Below, one piece after another: positions 35,375-64,000 of a stretch of DNA of 64,000 nucleotides. The notes under the pieces are model-generated. The model was not told the DNA's origin, did not search any database, and saw only the letters and a program-made list of their open reading frames with translations. A program made the position numbers and the translations under genes. Each line of letters opens with the position of its first letter. The stretch's first letter is position 1. Location of the stretch: contig JAKFXC010000058.1 in assembly GCA_021731625.1 (NCBI GenBank), positions 815 through 64,814 on the forward strand, in the 5' to 3' direction. This DNA comes from Candidatus Omnitrophota bacterium (GTDB lineage: Bacteria; Omnitrophota; Gorgyraeia; Zapsychrales; Fredricksoniimonadaceae).

Positions 35375-35995
35375 ATGAAAAAGAACCCGTTACAGGCTTT
35401 TATCATTTTAGTCGTTTCGGCAGGGCTCATGTATGCCCTTTATGCTCTTGCTGTAACGGCGTGGCAGCTGTATGTGCGCCAGACCGAGATGATTGTTCAT
35501 CTGGACAATCTAAACACCAAATTGGATGGTATAGAGGCCGCTATCAAAGAGCTTGGAGCTTCGCAAAAAAGTTTAAAGGAAGCTCTGGTCCTGGAAAAAA
35601 AAGTCAAGGACAAGAAAATCTTGGACCTGGCGTCGTACCTGCGCAAACGTTCGGCCCAAGAGGGCCGCGCCTTTCGTCTGTTGGAAACCCAGACCCGCAA
35701 CGTGTCCGCGTCCATGGGCTCCCTGGAAGGCAAGACCAAACGATGGGTGAATGACAGTGTCATTGCCATGTCTTCCCTGGAGCTTGGCATCAGGTCCTTA
35801 AATGATAAGCTGACCCCGGTGCTGGATTCCCGTTTGCCCCAACTTGAGCACGCCTACGAAGACCTTTACCGCGAGCACATGCGGTATCTGGCCTTGACCA
35901 AGTCGTTGACCCGCGACCTGGATCAAAAAGTCCAACAACTCCGCGAAGACGTTACCCGCCAGCAAGACCAAGTCCTCGACGTTATTGCAAAATAA
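35375..35995 (+). CDS. membrane-anchored coiled-coil hypothetical protein
   Basis: One N-terminal TM helix followed by heptad-rich sequence. Lies between two tRNA genes. Confidence 0.35.
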   Translation: MKKNPLQAFIILVVSAGLMYALYALAVTAWQLYVRQTEMIVHLDNLNTKLDGIEAAIKELGASQKSLKEALVLEKKVKDKKILDLASYLRKRSAQEGRAFRLLETQTRNVSASMGSLEGKTKRWVNDSVIAMSSLELGIRSLNDKLTPVLDSRLPQLEHAYEDLYREHMRYLALTKSLTRDLDQKVQQLREDVTRQQDQVLDVIAK

Positions 35996-47360: not shown

Positions 47361-47664
47361 CGCGGGGTGGAGCAGCCCGGTAGCTCGCTAGGCTCAATAT
47401 GGGCGACCGATTGAGAAATCAATCGGCAGATGACCTGTCAAATTCGGGGGAGCCCGCAAAGGTAATCCCGAGCCAAGTCCGCCGAAGTTCCGATTTATCG
47501 GAACGAAGGTGGAAAGGTGTAGAGACTAGATGGCAGGTACCCGACCTGAAAAGGTGGGTAAAGGTATAGTCCAGACCACAAATCTCGTCGGAAAATGAGA
47601 GCGGCGAAAGCCGTAGCTGGTACGCATAACCTAGAGGTCGCAGGTTCAAATCCTGTCCCCGCAA
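47361..47664 (+). tRNA. initiator tRNA-fMet(CAU) interrupted by a group I intron (exons 47361..47394 and 47625..47664)
   Basis: The spliced sequence CGCGGGGTGGAGCAGCCCGGTAGCTCGCTAGGCT|CATAACCTAGAGGTCGCAGGTTCAAATCCTGTCCCCGCAACC is near-identical to E. coli tRNA-fMet, including the C1xA72 mismatch. Confidence 0.85.
47395..47624 (+). ncRNA. group I self-splicing intron (230 nt) inserted 5' of the anticodon between U33 and C34
   Basis: The 5' exon ends in U and the intron ends in G. The conserved core segments CCCGAGCCAAGUCCGCCGAAG and GGUGUAGAGACUAGAUGGCAGGUACCC...GGGUAAAGGUAUAGUCCAG resemble the cyanobacterial tRNA and Tetrahymena group I cores (GCCAAGUCC; AGACUA). Confidence 0.8.
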
Positions 47665-47876
47665 CCCGTGCAGATTAGGACGTTGTCCGAAAGGATAGCG
47701 TCCTTTTCTGTTTACTGGGTATTTAGTGTTTTAAATTTGACTTTATAAAATAAATATGCAAAATAATTAAAGAAGCATTTCTCTCGTTCCACTCCCGCCG
47801 CTTCTACTCCGTGTCTTTCTTTGTAAATCCTTTTGATGCGACATAACCTTGATAGTATCGTGATTGATTTTTTGGA

Positions 47877-48338
47877 ATGGATACAAAACTCAAAGCTGAT
47901 ATAGCTGAATCAGCAGTAACTACTGAACTATTAAGCAGAGGGTTTAATGTTCTTAAGCCCATTGGTGATCGACTATGTTACGATCTAGCTATTGACATAA
48001 AAGGAAAATTAACGCGTATTCAAGTTAAACATGCTTGGTTCAATTATCGAGATAAAGCATATTTGGTAGATGTTAGAAGAACAAATACTAATAGACGACG
48101 GATGCTAAGAAAAAGATATTGCAATGAAGATTTTGAATTTGCAATTATTTATTTAGACGCCAAGGTTTATTATGTCATGCCCGCATGTATTTTTAATTCT
48201 TTTGGCAGCAACATTTCTTTTGTGGAAGATTCAAAAAGACAAAGACTTCCAAAATCTGTCAATTATCGCGAAAGATGGGATTTATTGAGTGAGTCAGTTT
48301 TTAATGTTACGGAAGGACCATGCCGCACACATGGATAA
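47877..48338 (+). CDS. small AT-rich ORF with a PD-(D/E)xK nuclease-like motif
   Basis: E...D(x)n...CYDLAIDIKGKLTRIQVKH (D..DxK..Q.K pattern). GC content is visibly much lower than the surrounding genes. Immediately downstream of the tRNA. Confidence 0.35.
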   Translation: MDTKLKADIAESAVTTELLSRGFNVLKPIGDRLCYDLAIDIKGKLTRIQVKHAWFNYRDKAYLVDVRRTNTNRRRMLRKRYCNEDFEFAIIYLDAKVYYVMPACIFNSFGSNISFVEDSKRQRLPKSVNYRERWDLLSESVFNVTEGPCRTHG

Positions 48339-48508
48339 CAGTTTGTACCGGAGACGTGGGTGACACAATCTCCGGTGCGATGAACGAGGCCGCCCAGACC
48401 CAGCCAAATGGCGGGGTCTTCTAAGAGCCGCACATAGCCCCACATAGCCTTGAATAGCATCTAAATATAGTGCATACTCTATACTGTATCCGTAAACTCA
48501 TCACACGT

Positions 48509-51500
48509 ATGCGCACTGACTTTAAAAGCCTCCTTTTTTCCAGAACCCTATGCCTTGGATTATGCCTTTTAATAGCCATAGGCCAAGGGCCGGTCTATGC
48601 CCAGACTTTGTTTATCAACAGTCTGCCTCCCCCGGGGGACATGCTATCTTTGTCAGCAGACTTTACGCCTGTGGTACTTAGAGGTGTGGTGGTTCATCCT
48701 GACAAACCGTTGAATTTTGATTTCGTTATCGACGCGGGTAATCATACGACTGATCCAAAGATTCTCAGGACCGAAGGCGAGCGCATGGTTAAGTATTTTT
48801 TGGCGGCGTTAACCGTACCCTCCAAGGATTTATGGGTCAACTTATCACCTTATGAGCATGAGCGCATTATTTCTAAGGAGCTTGGTGACACTGAGCTTGG
48901 TCGAGACATGTTGGCGCAGGATTATGTGCTTAAGCAGCTGACCGCCTCGCTTATTTATCCTGAGAGAGGTTTGGGTAAGAAGTTTTGGGACAAGGTATAT
49001 GATCAGGCAAGAACAAGGTATGGCGTCACCAATATTCCCATGCAAACATTTAACAAAGTTTGGATTACTCCAGCCTCCGCTGAGATCTATGAAAAAGATA
49101 ATACGGTCTATGTGACTAAGGCAAGGCTCAAGGTCAAGTTGGATGAGGATTTCCGGTCGTTGACAAGAAATAAAATAAACACAACAGGAGCTCACGCTTT
49201 AACTCCCCAAGTCTTAAGACAAGTTATCATTCCCGCTCTTGAAAAAGAAGTCAACGAGGGAAAGAATTTCGCCTCGTTGCGTCAGATTTACCATGCCACT
49301 ATTTTGGCCAAATGGTATCGTCAAGCCATCACAAAATCCCTGCTTTCTCGTTTTTATATCGACAAGAATAAGATCAAGGGCATTGACCTCGATGATAAGA
49401 CGATCAAGGAGCAAATTTACGAACGTTATATAAGGGCTTATAAAAAAGGGGTCTTTAATTATATTAAAGAAACTCCCATGCCCAATGGCCAACTGGCACC
49501 AAGAAAATATTTTTCAGGCGGAATCTCTCAACTTGATCAAATTCCATTTGATCATGCACAAACAGTGGAGATTCCTACTCAACCTCATTTTGTTATGAAT
49601 GTGGAATTAGATGCACCTGCCATTGCAAACCCAGCCATGACCCCCGATCTTAATTTTGCTATGACTTCTTTTTGGGATGATTTCGCATTGGATCGACCCG
49701 TCGACTCGTTGGTCCAGGGAATTCTTTATATGGAGAGTCGGCTGATACCCGGTCCTCATTATGAAATGGAGTGGGGAATGCGGCAAAGGATCATCGACGC
49801 ACTTGGTATTTTGAATCAAAGGCTGAAAAAGAAAGGAGGGAAGAGAACAGTAGATTTTTTGAAGGCCCTTCTTCGGGAAAATAGTCCCGTTTATGAGAAG
49901 AACCCCGATGTCCAAGAAACGATCGGCCGTGTATTGGTGTTTCTCGACCAAGAGGCGGGAAAGCAAGTAACTGAGGACCATCGTTTATTGAAGGAGGCTC
50001 TGCAGATCATTTACCCTAACCTGCCCAAGAAGAGTATAGATCAGATCTACGGCAATCTAGAACGCGAGGACAGTCAGGTTTCAGAGAACGATATGAAGAT
50101 ATATACTCTCTTTAAAAATCGGAAATCGGATTTGCTTTTACGTAATCAATTTGTTTTGGACAGAATTTTTTCTTTACCTGGTGAGGAATTGGAAAACTTA
50201 ATCAAAAATTTTAAGGAGATTGACAGTCTGTTTGCGCACAGCGGTCTTGTGGATCCTTTGGGAGAGTATGTGCAGCTGGCGTATTTAATGGAAATGATTT
50301 TGCCTGATGTTGCGGTCAACTATCTGAAAGGTTTATATTTCAAAAATGGTGGAATAAAGGTTGTGATGAGATTTTTGGACAGCAAGAGGTCCTTTTTGCT
50401 CAATGATGGAGCATGGATGGAACTTAGAAAGCTGCTGAGAAAGATGAAAGAACTTAACGGTAAAAGCCGAACCTATAAGCTGGATACGAATTTCTATAAA
50501 ATGTTGAATTTAGCTTCTGCATTTTTGGACCTGGGAGGACCGGAAAAATTAAGCGCTGCTTTAGAATCGGTTGTCCCTTCAAAGAATCAAATAGACGTAG
50601 CTAAACAAATGGAAAGTATACTGCTCAAACAAATGGCTGAATTTTTGAACATCACATCAATTTCTATAAAACCGAATATCCAGGAAAAACTCTACATGCC
50701 ATATTTGTCGAGGATCCGGGTTGCCCTAAAGTATATAAAGGATGAAAAACCTTGGAAGCTCGACAGATTTAAGGCTTTGATTAGAGCCACGTTAGAAGAT
50801 CGCTTTTGGAATTTTATTGAAGACGAGAGTCAATCTGATGAAGAAGGAGCAGAGATTGCCCAGCATAACAAAGGCGTCCGGAAGGCTTTAGCGAAGGTGG
50901 GTATCAATGTGGACCGTTGGCTGGGCAAACAATTGGAGTCCAGGTTACCGGAGGAGAGGTTTACCTTTGGCCAGAATTCATTTATCATCCGGCCTATATT
51001 CCGCAGACCTGGTTATGATGTCTTTCTAGGGGATTTTACAAATTGTTCGGTAGGTATGAGTTCCAATCAGTATCCGGACGGGATGATGGAAAGGCTCATC
51101 GATGAGGGACTCAATACAATTGAAGTTATTGATGAAAGCACACAGAAACCTACGGCTGCAGCTTGGTTATTTGTTGCCGAGGATGGGAGTGTTGTCATTC
51201 AAAATTTGGAAGCCAATACCAATTATGAAAGTGATCCATCGTTAAAGAATTATCTAGGTGAGCAAATGGTGGCTTATACGATGAAATTCGCGAATCATGT
51301 AGGTACGAACCTCCTCCTAATAGGAGATGCGGTACACGGAAAATACTGGGAACAACGTGGGAAAGCCGGGTTTGTCATTGACCATTACGGCAAGAACAAA
51401 GTTAAGTTTGGCTTGGAGAAAATAGGCGGCTATCTTGGAGAGAAATATTACCTTACATCAGCCGGAGAGGAATATGCTTATCTCGTTACTGATTTTGCCA

Positions 51501-54500
51501 TGTACGTTGAGAAAGTTTCAGCCATGCAGGCCGTATCAAAAGCTGCCAGTCCAGCTATGGTAGTTTTCGAAGGCGCTCAGAAAATCACCCCTGAGGAAAT
51601 GGAGGGAGACAGCAAGATTTTAAGCACTTATCTGAAAAAAGAGAACATGGGAGATGTTGACGAAGCTATGAAGTCCAAGGAAACTCAATTGACCCAAATT
51701 ATCAGGGAAAACATTACTGGCAATGTCTCTATCACTTTAAACGAATTGGCTGTAGAGGCGGGGTTTGACGACCCTGCTAATAAAACTTTTCAACGGGTTC
51801 TTCTCAAATACCTTCAAACGATACCTAAAACTATTCTTCATGAACATGTTTCCGGCGTTATTTTCCCGGAAGATTTAATTAGATACTTTTTGGATGATGA
51901 ACCCTCCAAAGAAGAATTTACTGCTGATGAACGTCAAAACAGATTGGAAGCCCGCCGTGAAGCCAGACGGCGATTTGTTTTAACCGTTGATTCCCGCAGA
52001 AGCGGGATCGATTTGCAAGCCAACCCAGTGAATCCCAATAATAGTCAAGAAGAAGCAGACCGTGCTTTTCGAGAGATTTTGGAACTGCCCCAGAAAGTTC
52101 CACTAACTTTAAACGACATTAATTTGCCTAATACCGTTAAAAAACTGAAAATTTTTGTAACCTATAAAGATAAAAATGTCGATTGGAATAACTTTGAACG
52201 CGCTTTTGCTGTTATTAAAACTGTAACAGATGCGCACCCAAGATTTCGCTATGAACTCTTAAGAGAAGGTGTATTGCGGCATTTTAATCAAGACAATGTC
52301 CGTAATCTTGAATTAACCGATTTTCATAGCCAGTCGCTGGGAGAGCTCTTGAAAGAATTGGTTTCCATTGAACAGCAGCTTCATGGGGCAATGACATTGT
52401 CGGTTTTGAAAGCTTTTCGGAAAGATTATTTGGAACGGGTTTTAAAGCAGGCTGAAAAAAATGAGGACTATAGACAAGAAGTGTTTAAGCGGTATCAGGG
52501 GCAGTCATTGGATGAGGTTAAAGAAAGCATTTTCAGAGAAACTTTAAAAATGGACCAACAGTATTTTAAATTGGATCGGGAGAAAATAAAAAAAGAATTC
52601 GAGGAGGCCATCGAGCAGATCAAAGAGAATCTTAACATAGAAAAGAAGGAACAAGTCACTTTAGAAGATTTACGCAATCGGCTTATATTTGCCCTTGAGG
52701 CCCGTAAGTTAGCTTTGAAAGAAGCCAAAGATTTCGAGACAGATCTTAATCGACTAGAACTTAACGAGCCGCTCTTGCGTAAGCGTATCGGCGGTATCAG
52801 CAGCATCGGAAATGAAACAGGCTATATCAATTGGGTCGGCTCTCCTATTTTGCGTAACGCCCGCCGGATTGGGTTAAAGATTTCTTCCCATATGGGAGAA
52901 GTTTGGGAACCGAGCCAGTATGTGACGTCTTTAAAACGCATTAAATATGAAATTGAAAATGGGGTTAACCGACTCGCTCACGTGACGGTATTAGGATTGG
53001 ACTATGGACCATCAACGCGCATCCCAATATCTGAACCGGAGCGAATCGACGCTCAAAAACTTCAGGAAGAAATATTTAGTCTCCTGCTGCGGAATAATAT
53101 TCATATTGAACTTCAGCCAACCAGTCAAATCATTACCTCTGCCGATTTTAACGATTACAAAGGTCACATCATTAGGAAATTTTTTAAAATGAACAAAAAT
53201 GGCAGTGGTCTAAGTTTTTCTATTAATCCTGATGACAGCAGCATCTTCGATACCTCTTCCTCGCAAGAAGAACTTGCTGTTTGGCTCGCCAACCCGGAAC
53301 TTCCCTATTCAGTTCTGAGTCAAACGTTTCTTATGGCTAATGATGCCAGATTTTATGAGTCACCCCGCCGGGTCAAAAGACGATTGAGGAATGAACGGCG
53401 AAAGGTTTGGGCAGCGATCAAAGGTTTTAATAAACCCATTCAACGTCCCGCTATCGTAGTCATTGGGAGCGCGCGTATCCCTGATGGCGGTCCACAAGAA
53501 GAGACAGGACGAGAAATTGGGAAATTGGCTTGGGAAAATAGTACAGCGATCAAAACCGGAGGCGGTCCGGCAGCTATGAAGTGGCCTTTGGAAGAGTTCA
53601 TTAAGTCTAGAGAAGACCGTTTCAGAGCCCTGCGCAAACGAGGCTTATCTATACCTGACAACGTTCCAGTTCAGTCCATTAATGTGTTGGTGAATACGTT
53701 CGAACCCGAAAATAAATCTCTGGAACAAAATTATATGTTTCGCCATTTTGTATTCCGGAAATTAGGGCTACATTTAAACGCGCTAGGGCTTATCGGCATT
53801 CATGGCGGTCTAGGAACATGGGATGAAATTTTTGAAGGCTGGCGGCGTCGACGGGAAATATCGTTGATCGGAGAAAGTTACTATAAGCCTATTCTTGATG
53901 TGTTAAAAGATCGCTGGGAATTTGCGGGATTACTAGATCGTGTGGACTACTGGCCATTTGTGACTAACAGCAGCGAGGAAGCCTTTTATCACATCCTTGA
54001 CCATGCCGATAAACACAGAGTCATAATTCCAACTCAGAAACAAACAATGGCAGTCATCAAAGAAATGGAAAACGGCATCGACAAATTATCCGCGCTACCA
54101 CGGGCGGTCGTTATTCTGGGAAAGCCGGAAGATAATGCGTATGGACGGACGGTTCTTAATCAACTCAATGGTATTATTTCTCCGATTTTTAAGATGAAGG
54201 TTCCTGTCCGTATTGCTAGCCGTGGAATTATTTTGGGATCGGTTCTTAAGCAGGCACAGCAGCTTCGAGCGGAGTCGGTTTTGCAAGCTGTTCTGTATAA
54301 GAAAGAGGAAGTCGAGGGGCTTGTCCCAAGCGAACAGTATGTCAAACAGCATTTACCAGGGCAAACCCTATTTCTCGAAGATGATTCTAATCACCAGCTG
54401 CTGCTGACGTATGATGCGCGTGGTTATATTGTTTTGCCTGGGGTAGTTGGAATATTCAATAAACTTTTTGATATTGTGGTGGCCATGCAAACCGGCAGTA

Positions 54501-54967
54501 TACGCCGTAAACCAATTATTTTGGTGGGGCGTGAATTTTGGGAACCGATTTTAAAAATTTTGAAACAAACAATGGAGAATTATGACCCACCTTTAGTGTC
54601 TAAAGGCGATTTTGAATTGATGACAATTATTGATACACCTCAAGAGGCCACTGAAGAATTGGCCTTAAACGGCATTGGTGAAAGGACCGATGCCGCGATG
54701 ATGGGGACAGGAAACCGGGCCATGAACGACACCATCCATACAGGCCGAAAGCAAGACTTTGGCGGTATTGATCTTCAGGCGGACAAAATAAATCTGCACC
54801 GCCAAAATGATGGGCAAGAAATCAACGTTCATGCTGACCCAGCCATGATCGAGCAATTTCAAAACGCCCCCGGCTTTGTGCCGGTCATCATTAATATTCG
54901 CCCCCTGACAGATATTCGTATGTTCCTTGGCATCAATAAAGATCAGACCCACCCTAAAACAGGGTAA
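48509..54967 (+). CDS. giant exported multi-domain protein, paralog B (2152 aa from M14): shared N-domain, adenosine/AMP-deaminase-like domain, two LOG-like domains, shared C-terminal module
   Basis: Signal peptide MRTDFKSLLFSRTLCLGLCLLIAIGQGPVYA. The N-domain is homologous to 4998..8183. ADA-like motifs with correct spacings: LHEHVSG (HxH), SSHMGE (HxGE), RLAHV, ITSADF. LOG-like 1: VVIGSARI...TGGGPAAM...LIGIHGGLGTWDEI. LOG-like 2: LPGVVGIFNKLFD...KPIILVG.EFWEPI. C-terminus GGIDLQADKINL...NAPGFVPVIINIRPLTDIRMFLG. Confidence 0.6.
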   Translation: MRTDFKSLLFSRTLCLGLCLLIAIGQGPVYAQTLFINSLPPPGDMLSLSADFTPVVLRGVVVHPDKPLNFDFVIDAGNHTTDPKILRTEGERMVKYFLAALTVPSKDLWVNLSPYEHERIISKELGDTELGRDMLAQDYVLKQLTASLIYPERGLGKKFWDKVYDQARTRYGVTNIPMQTFNKVWITPASAEIYEKDNTVYVTKARLKVKLDEDFRSLTRNKINTTGAHALTPQVLRQVIIPALEKEVNEGKNFASLRQIYHATILAKWYRQAITKSLLSRFYIDKNKIKGIDLDDKTIKEQIYERYIRAYKKGVFNYIKETPMPNGQLAPRKYFSGGISQLDQIPFDHAQTVEIPTQPHFVMNVELDAPAIANPAMTPDLNFAMTSFWDDFALDRPVDSLVQGILYMESRLIPGPHYEMEWGMRQRIIDALGILNQRLKKKGGKRTVDFLKALLRENSPVYEKNPDVQETIGRVLVFLDQEAGKQVTEDHRLLKEALQIIYPNLPKKSIDQIYGNLEREDSQVSENDMKIYTLFKNRKSDLLLRNQFVLDRIFSLPGEELENLIKNFKEIDSLFAHSGLVDPLGEYVQLAYLMEMILPDVAVNYLKGLYFKNGGIKVVMRFLDSKRSFLLNDGAWMELRKLLRKMKELNGKSRTYKLDTNFYKMLNLASAFLDLGGPEKLSAALESVVPSKNQIDVAKQMESILLKQMAEFLNITSISIKPNIQEKLYMPYLSRIRVALKYIKDEKPWKLDRFKALIRATLEDRFWNFIEDESQSDEEGAEIAQHNKGVRKALAKVGINVDRWLGKQLESRLPEERFTFGQNSFIIRPIFRRPGYDVFLGDFTNCSVGMSSNQYPDGMMERLIDEGLNTIEVIDESTQKPTAAAWLFVAEDGSVVIQNLEANTNYESDPSLKNYLGEQMVAYTMKFANHVGTNLLLIGDAVHGKYWEQRGKAGFVIDHYGKNKVKFGLEKIGGYLGEKYYLTSAGEEYAYLVTDFAMYVEKVSAMQAVSKAASPAMVVFEGAQKITPEEMEGDSKILSTYLKKENMGDVDEAMKSKETQLTQIIRENITGNVSITLNELAVEAGFDDPANKTFQRVLLKYLQTIPKTILHEHVSGVIFPEDLIRYFLDDEPSKEEFTADERQNRLEARREARRRFVLTVDSRRSGIDLQANPVNPNNSQEEADRAFREILELPQKVPLTLNDINLPNTVKKLKIFVTYKDKNVDWNNFERAFAVIKTVTDAHPRFRYELLREGVLRHFNQDNVRNLELTDFHSQSLGELLKELVSIEQQLHGAMTLSVLKAFRKDYLERVLKQAEKNEDYRQEVFKRYQGQSLDEVKESIFRETLKMDQQYFKLDREKIKKEFEEAIEQIKENLNIEKKEQVTLEDLRNRLIFALEARKLALKEAKDFETDLNRLELNEPLLRKRIGGISSIGNETGYINWVGSPILRNARRIGLKISSHMGEVWEPSQYVTSLKRIKYEIENGVNRLAHVTVLGLDYGPSTRIPISEPERIDAQKLQEEIFSLLLRNNIHIELQPTSQIITSADFNDYKGHIIRKFFKMNKNGSGLSFSINPDDSSIFDTSSSQEELAVWLANPELPYSVLSQTFLMANDARFYESPRRVKRRLRNERRKVWAAIKGFNKPIQRPAIVVIGSARIPDGGPQEETGREIGKLAWENSTAIKTGGGPAAMKWPLEEFIKSREDRFRALRKRGLSIPDNVPVQSINVLVNTFEPENKSLEQNYMFRHFVFRKLGLHLNALGLIGIHGGLGTWDEIFEGWRRRREISLIGESYYKPILDVLKDRWEFAGLLDRVDYWPFVTNSSEEAFYHILDHADKHRVIIPTQKQTMAVIKEMENGIDKLSALPRAVVILGKPEDNAYGRTVLNQLNGIISPIFKMKVPVRIASRGIILGSVLKQAQQLRAESVLQAVLYKKEEVEGLVPSEQYVKQHLPGQTLFLEDDSNHQLLLTYDARGYIVLPGVVGIFNKLFDIVVAMQTGSIRRKPIILVGREFWEPILKILKQTMENYDPPLVSKGDFELMTIIDTPQEATEELALNGIGERTDAAMMGTGNRAMNDTIHTGRKQDFGGIDLQADKINLHRQNDGQEINVHADPAMIEQFQNAPGFVPVIINIRPLTDIRMFLGINKDQTHPKTG
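54758..54967 (+). repeat. dispersed C-terminal-module repeat, copy 2
   Basis: About 80% nt identity to 7968..8183 over the core. Confidence 0.6.
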
Positions 54968-55248: not shown

Positions 55249-55353
55249 GTGTAAAAGAATTGCTTAAAAGGTTGAATCCAGTTTCAAACGATACTAGGAT
55301 GATTATAGTTCAAAGTCTTTAATAGAATATTTTAATTTCTTTTGGAGAAAACA

Positions 55354-58300
55354 ATGTTCAAATTTCTTCTTATTGTATTATTCTGGGTGGTCAATTTTTC
55401 GAATGTTAATACTTATGCCCAGAGTACCACGTCACCGCTTGCCATTGAGGAGCAAGAAGTTAAAAAGATCAATAATGAATTGATCAATGACCGAAAAGTA
55501 TATAAGAGGAACCCTAGAAATAAGGACCATAAAAAACGCATGGAGCGTAAGTTGCACAAACGAAGAGAAAAGATTCTAAGACTCATGCAAGAGAATCCCG
55601 ATTTACTTAAGAGAATTGCTATGAGTGATCAAGAATCAGCGGATTTGCCCCCGGATTTTCAAAATTTGGTTGAGCGTCGTGTCAAAGAAGAAGGCGCTAT
55701 GGAAGTGATTGTTGAGGATCGCAATGACGGGGCAGTTGTGCATCAGTTTTTAAGGACCCGCAAAGGCCGGAAATTTAAAATGTTTTTGCCTAAAAATATG
55801 AAGTCAAAATTTCTTTCAGGGACCAAGGTGCGTTTTGAAGCCTATCAATTGGATGATCATATGGCCTATAGTGGAAGTCCTGATCAATCGGTTCAAGTTC
55901 TATCAACTCCAGATTCAAAAGTGTTGGGAGAGCAACGGTTATTGGTTGTTATGGCTAATTTTATAGATGGAGGTCCTCAAGGTTGGCAACCGGATGTGGT
56001 CAACAATATCGTTTTTAACGAAGTTAATAATTTTTTTAAAGAAGTATCTTATAATAAAATATGGTTAACTGGTGAGACTAAAGGTTGGATAACATTGCCG
56101 ATGACCTATGAACAAGGTAAATGTCGATTGACAAGTGATGGAAGGGTAGATGAAAATTATAATCGCACAATCCGGAACAAAATTATTAATGAAATTATTC
56201 GAATCATAGATCCCCAGGTGAATTTTCATGATTTTTCACGTATTTTAATAATTTATCCGTATGAAGCTTATGTTTGTGGTTATGCGGGGATTTCCTCATT
56301 AGGTAAAGCTGATCTTGAAACAGCAGATGGTTGGGTCAAGGCTTCTTTGGCTATTGTGTTGACGCAAGCGCCATCGACATCTCTGATTGCACATGAGTTA
56401 GGGCATAGTTTTGGGGTAATGCATGCAAATAACTTAGAATGTGATAATGTCAGTATTGGCACAAGCCCGCCTTGTTATAACATTGAATATGGAGATACCG
56501 GGGATATCATGGGTAGATCAGGTATTTTTCACTTTAATGCAGCGCATAAGGATACATTAGGTTGGTTTTCTCCTTCAAATTTAGCATTGTTTGATACGGT
56601 TGGGACAAATCATTACACGATTAAACCTATAGAAATACCCACCAATGAGCTTCAAGCTTTAAAAATATTACGAGGGCAAGGTTCTCACTTTTATATAGAA
56701 AATCGAAAACCTATTGGTTTTGATATGACCAATAGATTAAATGGTGCTGCTATACATATGGCCTCAGATGTTGTTTTAGGCTCGCATTTATTAGATATGA
56801 CCCCAAAATCTCAAGGGAGTCTGGAAGATTTAAATGATGCTGTATTAAATGTTGGAAAAGTTTTTTATGATCCGGTGGGTCAAATTACGATGGAAACCTT
56901 AAGTGACACATTCCAAGATCTTCAAGTTCAAGTTAAGGTAGATCCTGACACTAATCCGCCGCAAGTTGCTATTGACACGGAAAATACAAAAAGAATGGAC
57001 TATGACCTAAATGCCGTGCAAGTACAAGTTAATTTTTTTGAAAACAGGGGTTTAAAACAAATCGAATTATTTATTGATGATCAATTGTATCAAACCTCAA
57101 CGAATTTTAGTCCTACTAGTGATCAAGTTTCAGAAAGGTTTTATTGGCAAACAACTCAATATAACGAAGGCCCGCATCGATTGGTTGCAAAAGCAACAGA
57201 TTTAGTAGGCAATCAAGCCGTGTCAGCACCAATGATTTTTCAACTTAGTAAAGCCAATACGAATCATGATCCAATAGTACGGGTGTCGGGAAATACAACG
57301 GCGTCCGTTGGCCAGTGGATTTCATTGTTTGCCATCCCAGAAGATGCTGATGTTAACGATTTTCCTTTTGTATCGTATGAGATATCCAAAGAAGGAATTC
57401 AACCATCCACGAATTTAGGTGATGAAATATTTTATTCATTATTAGGGGATGTTGATGCCAGCCAGTTATTGGACAATCGGGATGAAGAGTTTCTAGCCAA
57501 ACATTTAAGTAATCCAGTACAATTTCCTTTGACGGAAAAGCAAAAAATATTAGCAGATGTTACCCAAGATGGGTTCATTAATCAAGCTGATTTGGATTTA
57601 ATCCATAAACTTAGTACATATGAAATTATACAAGATGTTCATGTTTTTTTAGCTAAATTAAATCGGACAGGATACTACAAGGTGAATTTCATTGTATCAG
57701 ATAGAAAAAGCTTTGTTTCTAAATTGGTGGATCTTGAAATTACCAATTCATCGGGTGTTTCTACCAATACGCCTCCGGAATTTCAACCAATCGGTGCCCA
57801 ACACGTTCAAGTAGGATCGACATTAACATTTCCTTTGTTGGCAACAGATAGAGATAATGATGCCTTGTTTTATGCGTTGGAAACACCGGTGCCCAATGGA
57901 GCTCTTCTAAACGGGAATATTTTTGCTTGGACCCCGCGTCCTGAGCAAGCGCTTGCTCCTACCAATGTTTATTCTTTGGTGTTTAAAGTGACAGATCAAA
58001 AATCTTCACCCGTTTCGCAACAAATAACCATTACTGTCAACCAGATACCAAATATTCCCAAAAAATCAACTAAAACAACGTTGGCCCTGTTGTCCAATAT
58101 AAATGTGACAGCTGGAGACCCGATAGACATTGTTGCGATCGTTGGTGAAGGCCAAAACCCAACAGGCCATGTTGATTTTTATGAATCAAGTGTTGCCATT
58201 CCTTCTTGTGTTGGCTTGAGATTAAGGGCAGAATCTATTGCCTGCCATCTGCATTCGTTAAATACCGGCGATTATTTTATAACAGCCCAATATTTGGGTG

Positions 58301-61197
58301 ATCCGTTGAATGAAAATTCAACAAGTCAGGTGTTAGGAATTAAAGTAGAGAAAAAACAGAGTCAAACAAACTTGACATTATCCCCGCCGAGTGGCAATGA
58401 GTTAGGCCAATTGATCACTTTGGAAGCCACAGTCACAGGATTTTTACCATCAGGAACAGTTAGTTTTACTGATCAAGACAATTTTATCACCAACTGTGCT
58501 GCGTTGATACTCAATGGCCAAGGAAAAGTTCAATGCCAGACCAGTACCCTTGGGGTGGGGAATCACGTGATACGGGCTCGATACAACGGGGATTCAAACA
58601 ATACCGAGAGTATAACCTCCGAGCCAATCAATCTGCAGATCAATGCTAAACCCCAAGTAGCAGCCCCAAGTTTTAGCGTGCCAGAGGGAGTATATAATAG
58701 TGAGCAACTTGTTTATTTAAGTACCACAACAATGGGTGCAGAAATCCGCTATACATTAGACGGCAGCTTGCCGACTTCTAGTTACAGTCTGTATCATGGC
58801 ACAGCAATTAATGTGGCCACACAGGCAACCATTAAAGCTGTAGCATTCAAAGATGGCATGGTTGATAGTCTCGTTGCGGTGGCGAATTATACAATCCAAA
58901 TACCTCCACCACCGATCGTAGACCCGCCAATTGTTTTGCCTCCAGTTAATAGATCAATGCCCATGGCGTTTTGGTTGCTGGATGGGAATGGTTATGATGC
59001 GGTGGGTGACAATCATCTAACTTTGGCTGGAACAACGTTTGTCACAGACACAGAGCGTCAACAAGTTTATAGCCTAAACGGCAGCACGGACAAAGCAATA
59101 TCGTATCTGACGGGCCCGTCAGAGAAACTCACCATTGCCACATGGTTTAAACAGACAGCTAGTAGTCCACAGCAGGTGATTTTACAAGGAGGGAACCAAT
59201 ACAACCATGATTTTTATTACCGCTTACAAGTAGTACTTAATCAAGCAAGAAAAGTGCATTATTTGAGTGGAGGGGTAGGCAGCGGTAATGGTCAAGGTTT
59301 TGCCTGGGATGAAAACATTATTTATAAAGAAGGGTGTCCAGTATCTTTGAATGTTTGGCATTTGGGTGTACTGACCCATGATAATGCAACGCATGAGACT
59401 ATTTTGTATCTTGATGGTAATCAATGCTTCAAGGAAAAAAGCAAAAAAGATTTAGCGCCAGCACCAGGATTGACGGTTGGCGCTTTTACAAATCCTGGAT
59501 TTAACTTTTCTGGATTGTTGGATGATGTGCGCATTTATAATAGAGTGCTAAGCCCTGAAGAAATCATCATGTTATATCATTCAACGACACGCCCAGTAAA
59601 CAAAATGAGTACAACGACAACGGTTGTTAGCCATTTCAATCCAGCTACTATTGGTAGCAGCATCACATTTCTGGCGACTGTTGGTAATAATACGAATAAT
59701 GTTCCAACCGGAACTGTGACCTTCTTGGACAACGGGCAGATTATAAATGCTTGTGCTCTTGTGCCTCAAGCTAATGGCATAGCCAGTTGTACAAGTACAA
59801 TCAGTGGATTAGAAGAAATGAACCATATCATTACTGCAAGTTACGGTGGAGATGGCAACAATAGCTCTTCCGTAAGCGCGCCTATGACACAAACAGTAAC
59901 CCCTAACGTTCAAGAGAATCTAACCGCCATTTTATACGGTAGCTCAGAGTGGACGCTTGCCAAGGACCGCGTGGGCCAACAACAAGCAACAGCCATACCA
60001 GATAATGTACGCGACATTCATATTCGATTAAATAATGTGCCAAAGGCGATACAAAAAATAACCATCAAATCCCTAGGTGATGTGGGGGTGTGGGAGTGGC
60101 CGTTCAATGGCCAAAATTGGTATATCGTACGCGAACCCAACAATGGCCCTGGACAAGTAGATCTGTATTTTGATTATTGGAAGGACGTAAACACGTATAC
60201 GATTGATTTGATTTATGATGATGGAAGCTCGAAATCCGTGACCACGGTTCCAGGAATACCAGATCAGGATATAATTCCACCTAACCTGCAAGTAGCAACA
60301 CCAACTTTTAATGTCTCCGAGGGGACATATGATAGTCCACAAAGTGTTTATTTAAATACAACAACAGCGGGGGCAGAAATCCGCTATACATTAGACGGTA
60401 GTTTGCCGACTTCTAGTTCTAATCTTTATAGTGGTGCTGTAATTCAAGTGACGACAAACACAACGATCAAAGCTTTTGCGTTTAAAAATGGTATGACCGA
60501 TAGCCCTATAGCAAGTGCAACGTATACAATCAACATGCCACCAATCAATACACCGCCAGCTGGACTTAAGCTTTGGCTTAAATTTGATGAGGGCACCGGT
60601 ACAACTGTTTCGGATACATCAGGATTGTTGGGTCAACCCGTACGTCATTTTTCCTTTAGTGGAAGCCCAAGATGGGAAGCGGGAAGAATAGGAGCTTATT
60701 CAGGATTCTTTAATGGAACAAATTATCTTAGTTCTAGTGGAGTGAACCTTGGGACCTTTGCTAATTCGTTTGATAATACACAAACAGCTTGGGTTTATCC
60801 CATAAAGCCAGGAAATTCATGCGCCATTTCTTATAACTGTGACGCCATTTTTGGAGATCAACCAGGAACAGGGTATTGGGCCCTTAGTTATGATAACAAG
60901 AATTTTGTGGTTTATAATTGGGATGGCGATGAAGATCAATGCCGGGGCAAGACAGCGTATAACCTCAACGCATGGTATCATGTGGCCAGGGTGCATACGG
61001 GTGGGAAAATTTATTTATATGTTAACGGCAAGGAAGAATGCTCTGTGGCAACAGGAAGTACGCAAAAGATAACGGGAGAGTTTCGTATAGGAAATGGCTA
61101 TTATGGCAGGGGCTTTAAGGGTCGGATCGACGACGCTCGGGTGTACGACCGCGGTTTAAATGCCGATGAGATTAGTAAAATTTTTAATAGTCACTAG
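55354..61197 (+). CDS. giant secreted metzincin-type zinc metallopeptidase with Ig-like, CHB_HEX_C-like and two LamG-like (concanavalin-A-type) domains
   Basis: Signal peptide MFKFLLIVLFWVVNFSNVNTYAQ. HELGHSFGVMH matches HEXXHXXGXXH. Two GAEIRYTLDGSLPTSS...IKA(V/F)AFK(D/N)GM units. LamG signatures LDDVRIYNRVLSPEEI and IDDARVYDRGLNADEI. AT-rich. The track ORF begins at a TTG at 55342. Confidence 0.65.
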   Translation: MFKFLLIVLFWVVNFSNVNTYAQSTTSPLAIEEQEVKKINNELINDRKVYKRNPRNKDHKKRMERKLHKRREKILRLMQENPDLLKRIAMSDQESADLPPDFQNLVERRVKEEGAMEVIVEDRNDGAVVHQFLRTRKGRKFKMFLPKNMKSKFLSGTKVRFEAYQLDDHMAYSGSPDQSVQVLSTPDSKVLGEQRLLVVMANFIDGGPQGWQPDVVNNIVFNEVNNFFKEVSYNKIWLTGETKGWITLPMTYEQGKCRLTSDGRVDENYNRTIRNKIINEIIRIIDPQVNFHDFSRILIIYPYEAYVCGYAGISSLGKADLETADGWVKASLAIVLTQAPSTSLIAHELGHSFGVMHANNLECDNVSIGTSPPCYNIEYGDTGDIMGRSGIFHFNAAHKDTLGWFSPSNLALFDTVGTNHYTIKPIEIPTNELQALKILRGQGSHFYIENRKPIGFDMTNRLNGAAIHMASDVVLGSHLLDMTPKSQGSLEDLNDAVLNVGKVFYDPVGQITMETLSDTFQDLQVQVKVDPDTNPPQVAIDTENTKRMDYDLNAVQVQVNFFENRGLKQIELFIDDQLYQTSTNFSPTSDQVSERFYWQTTQYNEGPHRLVAKATDLVGNQAVSAPMIFQLSKANTNHDPIVRVSGNTTASVGQWISLFAIPEDADVNDFPFVSYEISKEGIQPSTNLGDEIFYSLLGDVDASQLLDNRDEEFLAKHLSNPVQFPLTEKQKILADVTQDGFINQADLDLIHKLSTYEIIQDVHVFLAKLNRTGYYKVNFIVSDRKSFVSKLVDLEITNSSGVSTNTPPEFQPIGAQHVQVGSTLTFPLLATDRDNDALFYALETPVPNGALLNGNIFAWTPRPEQALAPTNVYSLVFKVTDQKSSPVSQQITITVNQIPNIPKKSTKTTLALLSNINVTAGDPIDIVAIVGEGQNPTGHVDFYESSVAIPSCVGLRLRAESIACHLHSLNTGDYFITAQYLGDPLNENSTSQVLGIKVEKKQSQTNLTLSPPSGNELGQLITLEATVTGFLPSGTVSFTDQDNFITNCAALILNGQGKVQCQTSTLGVGNHVIRARYNGDSNNTESITSEPINLQINAKPQVAAPSFSVPEGVYNSEQLVYLSTTTMGAEIRYTLDGSLPTSSYSLYHGTAINVATQATIKAVAFKDGMVDSLVAVANYTIQIPPPPIVDPPIVLPPVNRSMPMAFWLLDGNGYDAVGDNHLTLAGTTFVTDTERQQVYSLNGSTDKAISYLTGPSEKLTIATWFKQTASSPQQVILQGGNQYNHDFYYRLQVVLNQARKVHYLSGGVGSGNGQGFAWDENIIYKEGCPVSLNVWHLGVLTHDNATHETILYLDGNQCFKEKSKKDLAPAPGLTVGAFTNPGFNFSGLLDDVRIYNRVLSPEEIIMLYHSTTRPVNKMSTTTTVVSHFNPATIGSSITFLATVGNNTNNVPTGTVTFLDNGQIINACALVPQANGIASCTSTISGLEEMNHIITASYGGDGNNSSSVSAPMTQTVTPNVQENLTAILYGSSEWTLAKDRVGQQQATAIPDNVRDIHIRLNNVPKAIQKITIKSLGDVGVWEWPFNGQNWYIVREPNNGPGQVDLYFDYWKDVNTYTIDLIYDDGSSKSVTTVPGIPDQDIIPPNLQVATPTFNVSEGTYDSPQSVYLNTTTAGAEIRYTLDGSLPTSSSNLYSGAVIQVTTNTTIKAFAFKNGMTDSPIASATYTINMPPINTPPAGLKLWLKFDEGTGTTVSDTSGLLGQPVRHFSFSGSPRWEAGRIGAYSGFFNGTNYLSSSGVNLGTFANSFDNTQTAWVYPIKPGNSCAISYNCDAIFGDQPGTGYWALSYDNKNFVVYNWDGDEDQCRGKTAYNLNAWYHVARVHTGGKIYLYVNGKEECSVATGSTQKITGEFRIGNGYYGRGFKGRIDDARVYDRGLNADEISKIFNSH

Positions 61198-61216: not shown

Positions 61217-61351
61217 ATGAATATCGAAACCCGAATGGATTCTCGCTTGCGTGGCATTAACGGTAAGGGTATTAAATTTAAACTCGACCCAGCCATGGTT
61301 GAGCAATTGCAAAAGCCGACCGATATCCAGATGTTCCTTGGTATTTTATAG
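61217..61351 (+). pseudogene. degenerate orphan copy of the shared C-terminal module (remnant, different frame from the upstream gene)
   Basis: ...RGINGKGIKFKLDPAMVEQLQKPTDIQMFLGIL compared with the paralog C-termini ...DPAMIEQFQNAPGFVPVIINIRPLTDIRMFLGI. Nucleotide-level similarity with an internal deletion. Overlaps the lexA 3' end. Confidence 0.4.
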
Positions 61352-61942
61352 TTTCCGCACCACGGACACAACCACGCCGATGATGGAGGCGGAGTCGTTT
61401 AAGGGAATTGGATTGTAACGAGGATTGGCAGGTTTTAAAAAGTACCCGTCATTTTCTTTCTGCAGATATTTAACAGTTGTTTCTTCTCCTATTAAAGCCA
61501 CTACGATTTGACCCACTTCCGCAAATGATTGTTGCCGCACGATCACCAAATCGCCGGGCAAAATGCCGGCATCGATCATGCTGTCGCCTTTGACCCGCAA
61601 ACCGAAGGTGGTATTGGAAAGCACCAATCGATCCAAATTCAGGTATTCGTCGATATTCTCCACCGCCAACACCGGCGACCCGGCTTGGACCGTGCCCACA
61701 ATGGGGATGGAAAAGAGATTTTCGCGAATGATTTCAATGGCCCGGGATTTTTTTTCGGAAATGCGGATGAACCCTTTTTTGACCAGGGCTTTTAAATGGT
61801 CTTGGGCCGAGCGGGGGGAAGCAAAGGCAAAACGCGCCGCAATCTCCCTGATGCTGGGGGGCAATTGATTGTGTTTAATTTCTTCGTAAATAAATTTGAA
61901 AATTTCCTGCTGTTTTGGGGTCAAACGGTCGAGTTTAGTCAT
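61346..61942 (-). CDS. lexA: LexA repressor
   Basis: N-terminal wHTH (EIAARFAFASPRSAQDHLKALVKKGFI). C-terminal S24 peptidase with GDSM...K dyad (VKGDSMIDAGILPGDLVIV). Confidence 0.85.
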   Translation of the reverse strand: MTKLDRLTPKQQEIFKFIYEEIKHNQLPPSIREIAARFAFASPRSAQDHLKALVKKGFIRISEKKSRAIEIIRENLFSIPIVGTVQAGSPVLAVENIDEYLNLDRLVLSNTTFGLRVKGDSMIDAGILPGDLVIVRQQSFAEVGQIVVALIGEETTVKYLQKENDGYFLKPANPRYNPIPLNDSASIIGVVVSVVRKL

Positions 61943-61946
61943 GCGC

Positions 61947-62026
61947 CTATACTACTATTCATGCGTATAGTATGTCAAGCAAAAATTCAACTTGTCATGC
62001 TATACAAATGTATGGTATAAAGCATG
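61947..62026. promoter_or_regulatory. divergent lexA/polB-operon control region with two palindromes sharing TATAC/GTATA half-sites (candidate SOS operators)
   Basis: CTATAC-N12-GTATAG at 61947..61970. CATGCTATAC-N8-GTATAAAGCATG at 61996..62026. Confidence 0.3.
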
Positions 62027-62515
62027 CGGGAGCAAAATATGGCATTAAATGGGTTCGTCGGCAATGATTTTCACCAGGTCAACACGGCGCTGTTTTATCA
62101 CGCAGCCGAGCATTTGCCGACCTTGATTGTGGACTGCGCCAATTTTGCCGACCCGTATAAATTTTATCCCGCCATCGACGTGTGGGCCCTGCAGAACATG
62201 TATGTGTTTGAGCTGGAGCTGCTGCATAAGTTCCGGGACGTGCTGCGCCATCTGCCGGTTTACGCGCGGCAGTTAAACGTCCAGAGTATTATTGTGACCA
62301 CGGCGGATCATCTGATCAATTATCACGATGAAGATGAGAATGCCGGTATTTATCGGCACGCCTGGCAGTTGATGAAAAAAATCAGCCGCACCTCTGAGGT
62401 GACTGCCGGGGTTTTGCGCGGCTCCAAGCAATACGCATTGGCGTGGAAATACTGCGATCAACTTTGGGAGATGGATCATGGGACACACCGTCCGGTCACA
62501 GCGCATGGCGATTGA
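62024..62515 (+). CDS. hypothetical protein, first gene of the lexA-divergent operon
   Basis: 163 aa with no recognisable motif. Overlaps the next ORF. Confidence 0.4.
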   Translation: MREQNMALNGFVGNDFHQVNTALFYHAAEHLPTLIVDCANFADPYKFYPAIDVWALQNMYVFELELLHKFRDVLRHLPVYARQLNVQSIIVTTADHLINYHDEDENAGIYRHAWQLMKKISRTSEVTAGVLRGSKQYALAWKYCDQLWEMDHGTHRPVTAHGD

Positions 62516-62747
62516 CATTGTCTTAAGCGAACTGCAGGGATTTGCCGGGGCGTTGCGTCAAGAAGACCGCCGGTTATTGGAACGTTTGCTGCAAGAGCCG
62601 CTCAAACATGTTGGGGCGGTGTCGAATGCCGGCAGCATCAACATCTGGGCCATGATTTTGTTGTCGATTTTGATCGAACAAGAAAGGCGGTTAACGGCCT
62701 TGGAGAAAAAATATGATCGGCTGGCTGATCGACTGCTACCGCAGTGA
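62478..62747 (+). CDS. hypothetical protein, second gene of the operon
   Basis: 89 aa. Overlaps both neighbours (about 38 nt with upstream, about 35 nt with polB). Confidence 0.35.
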   Translation: MGHTVRSQRMAIDIVLSELQGFAGALRQEDRRLLERLLQEPLKHVGAVSNAGSINIWAMILLSILIEQERRLTALEKKYDRLADRLLPQ

Positions 62748-64000
62748 CAACCACATCGTGGTGTGGTTAAAGACGCTCGACGGAAAAGATGTGCGGTGCC
62801 AATATCCGTATCAGGTTTTTATTTATGCCCACCTGGATGCGATGCCTGATCTTAAGGCCTACGCCATTTCTTTCGAGGTCATTCAAAAGAAGACGTACGC
62901 GCATTGCCGGACCGTGCTCAAAATAGCCGTGCCCAGTCTGGACCGCTTCGAGGCATTTGTGAAGCACCTGGAACAGATCACCTCTTACCGCGTCACCCTC
63001 TATAACGCGGACATCAAGCCCGAGCAATCTTTTCTTTACGAGTATGATTTATGTCCTTTCACGAAAGTGCAGGCAGAGCGCGCACAGCCCCGCATCCAGC
63101 CGTTCATCGACGAAGAAAAGGCACCCCTGAAACAACTTGATCTGGAAGTTGTGCCGGGCGTACAAATCCGGCAGGAGTTTAATTTTCCGGTTCGCTCCAT
63201 TTTATTTAACGGTGAGGTTTTAAAAGGCCCGGAAGCAGCGGTCCTTAAAGAATTCGCCGCACTCTTTCACGCCTATGACCCCGACGTGGTTTCCATCCAT
63301 CGGGCCTACGCCGTCGTTCCTTATCTGGCGTCGCGACTAAAGAAACATAACATTGCTTTTAAATTTGACCGTTGGGACAGCCGATTGTTGAAATACCGAG
63401 GAGGGCGTTCCTATTGGAGTTATAACCAGGTGCGTTACCAGGATTATTCGGTGCGCCTGCGCGGGCGTTTATTGATCGATCGCAGCACAATGATCGGTTC
63501 CGAATGCGACCTGGAGGGAATCATCGAAATGGTCCGGCTTTCGGGGACATTGTTTCAGCAAACCGTGGCCCGCAGTTTCGGAGCTGTTTTTCAATCAGCG
63601 CTGGTGCGGTTGATGGTCAGCGAGGGGATGGTCATTCCTTATAAAGAAAAACCCATTGAGCCGCCGTTGTCGATGTTTCATTTGCTCAAAGCCGATCGCG
63701 GAGGACTCACCATCGACCCCAAAATCGGCTTTCATCAAAATGTCGCGGAGTTAGATTTTATCAGCATGTTTCCTTGGCTCATCTACAACCATAACATCTC
63801 CGCCGAGTGCATTTTGTCTAACGAGGGGCCGTTTGAGCAGGTGCCGGATTTGCCGATCAAGGCTTCCTTAAAAATCAAAGGCCTTATCCCTAGGGCTTTA
63901 AAACCTTTTATTGACCGCCGGATGTTCTATAAACAAAATCCGTCGGAGGAGCATAGCCGCCGGGCCCGGGGGCTTAAATGGATTTTAGTCAGCTGTTACG
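62713..64000 (+). CDS. polB: family B DNA polymerase (Pol II), N-terminal part; continues beyond the window
   Basis: MIGWLIDCYRSDNHIVVWLKTLDG...TLYNADIKPEQSFLYEYDL parallels E. coli Pol II (VYEADVRPPERYLMERFI). LDFISMFPWLIYNHNIS matches polymerase motif A (DxxSLYPS). Not in the ORF track because no stop codon occurs within the window. Confidence 0.8.
   Translation, partial: MIGWLIDCYRSDNHIVVWLKTLDGKDVRCQYPYQVFIYAHLDAMPDLKAYAISFEVIQKKTYAHCRTVLKIAVPSLDRFEAFVKHLEQITSYRVTLYNADIKPEQSFLYEYDLCPFTKVQAERAQPRIQPFIDEEKAPLKQLDLEVVPGVQIRQEFNFPVRSILFNGEVLKGPEAAVLKEFAALFHAYDPDVVSIHRAYAVVPYLASRLKKHNIAFKFDRWDSRLLKYRGGRSYWSYNQVRYQDYSVRLRGRLLIDRSTMIGSECDLEGIIEMVRLSGTLFQQTVARSFGAVFQSALVRLMVSEGMVIPYKEKPIEPPLSMFHLLKADRGGLTIDPKIGFHQNVAELDFISMFPWLIYNHNISAECILSNEGPFEQVPDLPIKASLKIKGLIPRALKPFIDRRMFYKQNPSEEHSRRARGLKWILVSCY

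Follow-up and report, generated by a model that had tools for sequence, protein, structure and literature searches.

A PolB2-type DNA polymerase operon divergent from lexA in an Omnitrophota bacterium, and its probable control by LexA

An operon encoding an "inactivated" family-B DNA polymerase (PolB2), a helical protein of approximately 90 residues (arCOG07300) and an inactivated RadA was described in archaea and several bacteria by Makarova, Krupovic and Koonin (2014, PMC4104785), who found lexA in the neighborhood of this operon in some of the bacteria. The two partner proteins were subsequently named iRadA and PPB2 (Timinskas, Timinskas and Venclovas 2025, PMC11791011). According to the latter study, bacteria show only the gene order iRadA-PPB2-PolB2, with genes for LexA, SRAP and DUF72 proteins enriched nearby; fusions of iRadA with PPB2 occur, the N-terminal arm of PPB2 has a conserved MGRT sequence, and a complex of one PolB2, one iRadA and three PPB2 subunits was modelled. 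The archetype of the system is Dpo2 of Sulfolobus islandicus, and a bacterial representative is the Leptospirillum ferriphilum operon LFML04_0990-0993. PMC7390963 describes Dpo2 as damage-inducible, and PMC8764526 describes S. islandicus Dpo2, which carries an IID/IVD-type substitution in motif C, as an extender in translesion synthesis. Here, we report an operon of this kind in a 64,000-nucleotide stretch (positions 815 to 64,814, hereafter the window) of contig JAKFXC010000058.1 from a Candidatus Omnitrophota bacterium (GCA_021731625.1), where it is located next to lexA and transcribed in the opposite direction.

The locus is a new bacterial member of the described iRadA-PPB2-PolB2 operon, and every defining feature that we tested was found. 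We consider it most likely, with a probability of roughly 0.8, that it is a bacterial PolB2 mutasome operon which resides in an Omnitrophota chromosome, is divergent from lexA and is repressed by LexA. With the published system it shares the three protein families in the only bacterial order, a PPB2 N-terminal arm containing Arg9, a decayed exonuclease domain, an IVD sequence at the motif C position (in relatives), an adjacent lexA gene and, again in relatives, a downstream SRAP gene. It differs in that the PPB2 arm reads MGHT (His in place of Arg3) and not MGRT as in PMC11791011, in that the host belongs to Omnitrophota, a phylum absent from the main text of that study, in that no clear beta-clamp motif was seen at the C-terminus of iRadA, and in that a LexA operator is predicted. 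A preliminary description of this DNA had pointed to a LexA-adjacent, probably SOS-controlled family-B polymerase with two small partners, and this outline was supported by our analysis. The two partners, which were unrecognised at that stage and thought to be possible novel accessory factors, are iRadA and PPB2, both already described together with their linkage to lexA (PMC4104785, PMC11791011).

The lexA gene (61346..61942, minus strand, 198 residues) is divergent from three overlapping plus-strand genes, with coordinates as originally placed. These are iRadA (62039..62515, 158 residues), PPB2 (62478..62747, 89 residues) and a gene for a PolB2-type family-B DNA polymerase (62713..64000), which is cut by the end of the window after the first 429 residues. 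Overlaps of 35-38 nucleotides had been reported, and they measured 38 nucleotides between iRadA and PPB2 (62478-62515) and 35 nucleotides between PPB2 and the polymerase gene (62713-62747). Translational coupling of the three genes is plausible because each internal ATG has its own predicted Shine-Dalgarno sequence inside the preceding gene (GGGAG or GGAG, 7 nucleotides upstream of the ATG of both PPB2 and the polymerase gene). The iRadA reading frame is open from an ATG at 62024, which corresponds to the 163-residue protein listed initially; this open reading frame (ORF) is real, but translation almost certainly begins from the ATG at 62039, which would give a protein of 158 residues with the N-terminus MALNGF. 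At the equivalent point, nearly all full-length homologs start with MALxG or a closely similar sequence, and a GGGAG sequence is located 6 nucleotides upstream of this ATG. A start at 62024 is unlikely because this ATG is only 2 nucleotides past the predicted -10 element of the operon promoter, and it is probably not transcribed. The control region between lexA and the operon, given as 80 nucleotides in the preliminary description, is 81 nucleotides long if counted to the first ATG, but 96 nucleotides long if counted to the likely iRadA start.

The polymerase was identified as a family-B enzyme by a Pfam scan (PF00136), and sequence comparison placed it in the archaeal-derived PolB2 group. The best NCBIfam model was NF004416, a short archaeal-type PolB model of 665 positions, which matched the window fragment with an E-value of 8.6e-45 and 153 bits and full-length relatives (54-61% identity, 702-731 residues) with 312-348 bits over most or all of its length, the scores of both the fragment and the relatives being below the equivalog cutoff of the model. 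Both the length of NF004416 and the literature lead us to infer that it stands for PolB2/Dpo2. NCBIfam models of Pol II gave no more than 22.7 bits on the window fragment (NF004421, 22.7 bits, cutoff 570), and NF004421 gave 37.5-51.5 bits on the full-length relatives. The parallel with E. coli Pol II that had been drawn earlier from the N-terminus of the protein therefore does not hold. Relatives end in QQxEFxFD, a candidate clamp motif. When these relatives were searched against PDB, Thermococcales PolB was matched at 3e-21, and E. coli Pol II, at 2e-5, was the weakest of the matches listed. Nitrososphaeria PolB loci (approximately 25% identity) were set aside as a different group; one of them, L020, was examined and had no iRadA or PPB2 upstream. 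DPANN members of the PolB2 group (1155-3722 in L010, 5983-8520 in L011 and 4001-6592 in L039) were 845-863 residues long and had a C-terminal extension of about 120-150 residues containing the pattern ...HHGMPDF(I/L)CY...ECK..., which resembles a PD-(D/E)XK/VRR-NUC-type nuclease motif.

The first partner protein had no family in Pfam or NCBIfam scans, which covers ImuA to the extent that these libraries contain models for it, and a Walker A motif (GxxxxGK[ST]) was not found in its sequence. An AlphaFold2 model built from 15 homologs had a predicted local distance difference test (pLDDT) value of 89 and a predicted template modelling score of 0.84, and its top Foldseek matches in PDB were XRCC2, RecA, DMC1, RAD51 and RadA (E-values from 2.5e-7, template modelling scores 0.58-0.77). 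Thus, an earlier guess that one of the partners has an ImuA/RecA-like fold was right for this protein. By its predicted fold, it is iRadA, an inactivated protein with a RadA/Rad51/RecA core and without the N-terminal domain; the HMMER profile reaches close clusters and not the archaeal iRadA families. The family is small, as only 117 clusters were detected in a HMMER scan of 1.84 billion representative proteins. The sole match of the profile against PDB sequences, the designed repeat protein 7uek, was judged to be spurious. Sequence inspection of the iRadA C-terminus revealed no convincing beta-clamp motif. Five family members of 235-247 residues were inspected, and all five were iRadA-PPB2 fusions with an internal MGHTV. 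The fusions identified (P0155, P0160, P0174, P0204, P0220 and the protein encoded at 3349-4035 of L046) were 228-247 residues long, and the internal MGHTV resembled a translation start. These natural fusions support a physical interaction of iRadA with PPB2.

The second partner was assigned to PPB2 (arCOG07300). The exact protein has a precomputed Pfam annotation, PF26485 (DUF8156), and direct Pfam and NCBIfam scans returned no family, the scanned Pfam set evidently lacking PF26485. Its N-terminal arm is MGHTVRSQR, and MGHTVxSQR is invariant in 15 homologs. A monomer model was all-helical with three helices and had low confidence (pLDDT 65); with this model, the sigma-factor resemblance reported for PPB2 was not reproduced.

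On sequence grounds, the lexA product is a full-length LexA with an intact cleavage site and Ser/Lys catalytic pair. It matched TIGR00498 with an E-value of 5.6e-62 and 208.9 bits, above the cutoff of 110.95, and contained the winged-helix DNA-binding domain (PF01726, LexA_DNA_bind) and the Peptidase_S24 domain (PF00717). In an alignment of this protein with nine orthologs, the Ala87-Gly88 cleavage site, Ser121 (in GDSM) and Lys158 were invariant. LexA orthologs also placed the window in Omnitrophota. The lexA promoter (61949..61978, minus strand) consists of a -35 element TTGACA (61978-61973), an 18-nucleotide spacer and a -10 element TAGTAT (61954-61949), and scored 10/12 in the promoter scan. 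The operon promoter (61992..62021, plus strand) consists of a -35 element TTGTCA (61992-61997), an 18-nucleotide spacer and a -10 element TATAAA (62016-62021) that is preceded by TGG, resembling an extended -10; the consensus promoter scanner did not call this promoter, whose -10 ends in A, and it was read from the sequence instead. Transcription of the operon would start near 62028.

Each of these promoters contains a predicted LexA operator. Operator 1 (61955..61970), the candidate site of lexA autoregulation, fills the spacer of the lexA promoter directly upstream of the -10 element. Its sequence on the lexA strand is CTATAC-GCAT-GAATAG (CTATACGCATGAATAG), one mismatch from a perfect palindrome, and its position weight matrix (PWM) score of 15.5 bits is circular and not significant alone. 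Operator 2 (62000..62015), which reads CTATAC-AAAT-GTATGG (CTATACAAATGTATGG), lies in the operon promoter, where it overlaps both spacer and TGn. It was the top PWM match in the window (23.2 bits) and includes, at 62001-62014, the only exact match to YAYAC-N4-GTRTR in the 64 kilobases (kb). In addition, the pattern TATAC-N(2-14)-GTATA had exactly two matches in the window, both of them in this intergenic region, with 0.07 predicted from shuffled sequences. The two TATAC/GTATA palindromes noted previously in the control region are therefore real; however, the first of them was mispaired, as the TATAC-N12-GTATA pairing at 61948-61969 was dropped for the N4 16-mer, the only one conserved in orthologous promoters. 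Moreover, the palindromes do not overlap the lexA and iRadA starts, as was thought initially, but are both located between -35 and -10. One-mismatch operator matches in the window occurred at the level of chance (9 observed versus 9.2 expected). A candidate site at 35286, upstream of an ORF at 35354-35995, was rejected; it had a low PWM score, and the ORF had no family.

The preliminary description had made its proposal depend on whether the palindrome recurs upstream of other DNA-damage genes, and in partial agreement with this we found it at other lexA promoters and at other PolB2-operon promoters. In total, the 16-bp palindrome CYAYAC-N4-GTRTRG was present between -35 and -10 in six lexA and four PolB2-operon promoters. 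Besides that of the window, the lexA-promoter sequences were CTATACATATGTATAG (L034, a perfect palindrome), CCATACATCTGTATAG (L035), CCATACAAATGTATAG (L036), ACATACATTTGTATAG (L033) and CCACACTTATGAGTGG (L037), and those upstream of iRadA were CCACACGTATGTGTGG (L003), CCATACATATGTGTGG (L001) and ACGCACAAATGTGTGG (L009). In four lineages (the window, L003, L001 and L009), iRadA is preceded by the layout of a -35 element, the 16-mer and TGG-TATnnn, and no lexA was seen beside the operon in the three bacterial lineages other than the window. Among 34 fetched loci, the window-derived pattern YAYAC-N4-GTRTR matched only these lexA and PolB2-operon promoters. A scan of metagenomes yielded mostly DPANN-like loci and no further bacterial promoters. 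Because the neighbors of lexA differ among the Omnitrophota genomes compared, the palindrome appears to follow lexA and not the surrounding genes. In LexA proteins associated with ATAC-type boxes, the recognition helix was SPRSAQDH or a close variant, and the L037 LexA, 59% identical to that of the window, had the recognition helix STGTVRDY and a CACAC-type box in its own promoter, L037 being the one example of a CACAC-type lexA box examined.

We propose that CYAYAC-N4-GTRTRG is the LexA box of this clade, because its position in the promoter is conserved and its variants track the LexA recognition helix. Whether it constitutes a previously undescribed LexA box of Omnitrophota, a CACAC variant of which precedes iRadA in Brocadia and an unclassified bacterium, is in our estimate an evenly balanced matter. 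The words "operator" and "promoter" are both absent from the main text of PMC11791011, and among the papers listed by a full-text literature search, none contained the phrase "LexA-binding motif" together with a name of this phylum; the candidate box is the only element of the locus that was not found in the existing literature examined. The closest known boxes are of the GAAC-N4-GTTC class (CGAAC-N4-GTTCG in Bacillus subtilis, PMC9578287), with which it shares an N4 palindrome, an AC-N4-GT core and overlap with the lexA promoter, whereas the outer half-site is C-G-A-AC in B. subtilis and C-Y-A-Y-AC here.

It is also conceivable that the palindrome is the operator of another transcription factor, or mere promoter architecture, and that its adjacency to lexA is incidental. 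The link between LexA and the palindrome comes from comparison, the promoters compared being those of lexA and of the PolB2 operon, and the right arm overlaps the TGn of the extended -10 and may be conserved for that alone. However, the left arm is conserved with no promoter role, and the 16-mer is found in the lexA promoter of six genomes with differing neighbors, autoregulation being a hallmark of LexA. A change in the box also accompanies a change in the LexA recognition helix, and the AC-N4-GT core fits the class of LexA boxes known from B. subtilis. We regard a role unrelated to LexA as unlikely.

Two additional observations concern lexA in these genomes. In six Omnitrophota (the window and L033-L037), the -10 element of the lexA promoter ends 6-7 nucleotides before the ATG (6 nucleotides in the window), and a Shine-Dalgarno sequence cannot fit in this space. 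The short distance between the -10 and the ATG suggests that the lexA mRNA is leaderless across the clade, with the transcription start predicted from the promoter. In L037 (4694-7408), lexA is followed by a co-oriented ORF of 197 residues without known family and by a gene for a UvrD-family helicase, and this stretch may be another SOS-linked neighborhood.

With regard to catalysis, motif A (ELDFISMFPW) is present in the window polymerase. The canonical motif C is YGDTDS; at this position, relatives of the window protein have HAIVDS, in which the first Asp of the DxD is absent, and the Exo I aspartate is not conserved among them. These losses, together with the lack of ATPase motifs in iRadA, would fit a PolB2 complex that is catalytically dead and serves as a regulator or fork-remodelling factor, a possibility first proposed by Makarova et al. 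(2014, PMC4104785). We consider a dead complex improbable, since S. islandicus Dpo2 has an equivalent substitution and is nevertheless presented as a translesion extender in PMC8764526, and since the window protein retains an intact motif A.

The small ORFs were expected to be conserved beside the polymerase gene in relatives if the initial proposal was correct, and this was the case. The order iRadA-PPB2-PolB2, in several cases with equal overlaps, was observed in Omnitrophota, Brocadia, an unclassified bacterium and DPANN archaea; apart from the window, the cassette was detected in another Omnitrophota genome, an unclassified bacterium and a Woesearchaeota metagenome-assembled genome (MAG). 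One Joint Genome Institute (JGI) contig repeats the divergent lexA arrangement, and in Brocadia and a JGI contig, iRadA-PPB2-PolB2 is followed by SRAP. In Brocadia sp. WS118 (L001, 1-16438), the iRadA-PPB2-PolB2-SRAP genes are surrounded by genes for a phage-type integrase, a TIR-domain protein, a DnaG-like primase, a relaxase and a TrwB-like protein. This Brocadia cassette resembles the cargo of a mobile element, yet its promoter keeps a CCATAC-N4-GTGTGG box.

The PolB2 subclade of the window is common to bacteria (Omnitrophota, Brocadia and an unclassified MAG) and DPANN archaea (Woesearchaeota and Nanoarchaeota MAGs), with 45-55% identity (loci L010, L011, L012 and L039-L046 compared with window positions 62713-64000). 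In a crude neighbor-joining tree, the bacterial and DPANN PolB2 groups were neighbors. This distribution hints at an exchange of the subclade between bacteria and DPANN, although errors in the binning of MAGs may contribute, and movement of the subclade between ultra-small bacteria and DPANN archaea is a possibility.

Such a distribution raises the question of whether the window cassette is the cargo of a recently inserted mobile element rather than a resident of the SOS regulon. The Brocadia neighborhood and the occurrence of one clade in bacteria and DPANN at approximately 50% identity are compatible with mobility, as is an L010 ORF that begins at 331, abuts the polymerase gene and, judged by eye from its translation, looks like a tyrosine recombinase. 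However, the guanine-plus-cytosine (GC) content of the window operon is 50.7%, as in its housekeeping neighbors (approximately 51%), the flanking genes are chromosomal, and the operator is of the type found in lexA promoters of related Omnitrophota. Recent insertion as cargo is thus also an improbable explanation for this locus.

Several other SOS-associated polymerase systems may be compared with the PolB2 operon. ImuA-ImuB-DnaE2 is likewise a LexA-linked multigene mutagenesis module, in which ImuA is a RecA-like partner protein. The PolB2 system is unlike it in that its polymerase is of family B and not C, in that it has no Y-family ImuB scaffold and in that it is of archaeal origin. ImuB and DnaE2 were not seen in the cassettes of the relatives, and the sole polymerase in the window operon is of family B; the idea of a diverged imuA-imuB-dnaE2 cassette was not borne out, only the RecA-type fold being shared. 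Pol II of E. coli (polB) has an active 3'-5' exonuclease and intact DxD motifs. It is a family-B enzyme that is regulated by LexA and acts in translesion synthesis (PMC9578287), but it is single-subunit (PMC11791011), belongs to a different clade and has marginal sequence similarity to the PolB2 proteins. The preliminary description had suggested, from a family-B polymerase beside lexA, that an SOS-inducible Pol II of the E. coli type might act here together with two novel accessory factors, and the LexA regulation of E. coli polB is consistent with this view. It is effectively refuted, however, by the weak Pol II model scores (at most 22.7 bits on the fragment and below 52 on relatives, versus 153 and 312-348 for NF004416), by the PDB matches listed, by the absence of the first motif C Asp in close relatives and by partners that belong to the known iRadA and PPB2 families.

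The Pol V mutasome (UmuD'2C-RecA-ATP) was compared with the PolB2 complex by Timinskas et al., who noted that each combines a polymerase with a RecA-family subunit and a small oligomeric partner whose N-terminal arm is functional, and that both are under SOS control. In contrast to the PolB2 operon, which encodes a dedicated inactive paralog, Pol V combines a Y-family polymerase with the active RecA of the cell; moreover, UmuD is an S24 peptidase, whereas PPB2 is not.

Based on these data, we suggest the following mode of action for the LexA-repressed PolB2 operon. In undamaged cells, a LexA dimer bound to each palindrome would block RNA polymerase at both promoters, and lexA would be autorepressed. 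Upon DNA damage, RecA assembled on single-stranded DNA would trigger self-cleavage of LexA, which is plausible because the Ala-Gly site and the Ser/Lys pair are intact. Both promoters would then fire, and one mRNA would yield the three overlapping gene products, whose translation is possibly coupled. By analogy with the described systems, these products may assemble into a complex of one PolB2, one iRadA and a PPB2 trimer, and the proofreading-deficient PolB2 complex may extend DNA past lesions and mismatches, as a polymerase of SOS mutagenesis and damage tolerance. Its role would be comparable to that of Pol V or ImuA-ImuB-DnaE2 in other bacteria.

In addition to the comparative basis of the link between LexA and the palindrome, several points weigh against this interpretation. 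The site on the lexA side is mismatched, and its PWM score is within reach of shuffled sequence. The PWM scan found no third site in the window. Neither recA, uvrA nor other classical SOS genes were present in the nearest approximately 30 kb of the window annotated, which hold only housekeeping and surface-protein genes. Motif C of the window polymerase itself lies past base 64000, and the motif C data come from relatives; similarly, any SRAP gene downstream of the operon would lie beyond the end of the window. For the low-confidence PPB2 monomer model, Foldseek gave no meaningful fold match. The stoichiometry of the complex and its translesion role are borrowed from in silico (AlphaFold) models and from a crenarchaeon (Sulfolobus Dpo2 genetics). 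To our knowledge, no bacterial PolB2 operon has been studied experimentally, and what is known of the system comes from Sulfolobus genetics and AlphaFold models.

Other features of the window were also recorded. An initiator-type tRNA-Met(CAU) gene (47364-47668, plus strand) has its anticodon loop split by a group I intron (47385-47590; Rfam RF00028, 77.6 bits); its exons were recognized by eye, as ARAGORN made no call. An ORF for a PD-(D/E)XK_5 endonuclease (47877-48338) follows this split tRNA gene. Two very large plus-strand ORFs, 48470-54967 and 55342-61197 (2165 and 1951 residues), have a GC content of 37-43%, compared with approximately 51% in their neighbors. The former has a LOG/lysine-decarboxylase-like domain at its end, and the latter contains an M11-like peptidase region and Big_3_5, CHB_HEX_C and Laminin_G_3 domains.

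For annotation, our results mean that the two small genes should be labelled iRadA and PPB2 and not hypothetical, and that the polymerase should not be labelled Pol II. The locus leaves the general picture of the PolB2 system unchanged but provides a clean bacterial example of it: its LexA is intact, its two divergent promoters are compact, and its candidate operator is sharply defined. The notion that PolB2 is an SOS polymerase in bacteria thereby becomes testable by gel shift and reporter assays. If movement of the PolB2 subclade between bacteria and DPANN is real, it would complicate the published scenario of a single transfer. The proposed LexA box would permit prediction of the SOS regulon across Omnitrophota, an uncultured phylum. 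If this box is correct, it would show directly that a PolB2 mutasome of archaeal derivation has become part of a bacterial SOS regulon, and that the box has changed in step with the LexA recognition helix inside one phylum.

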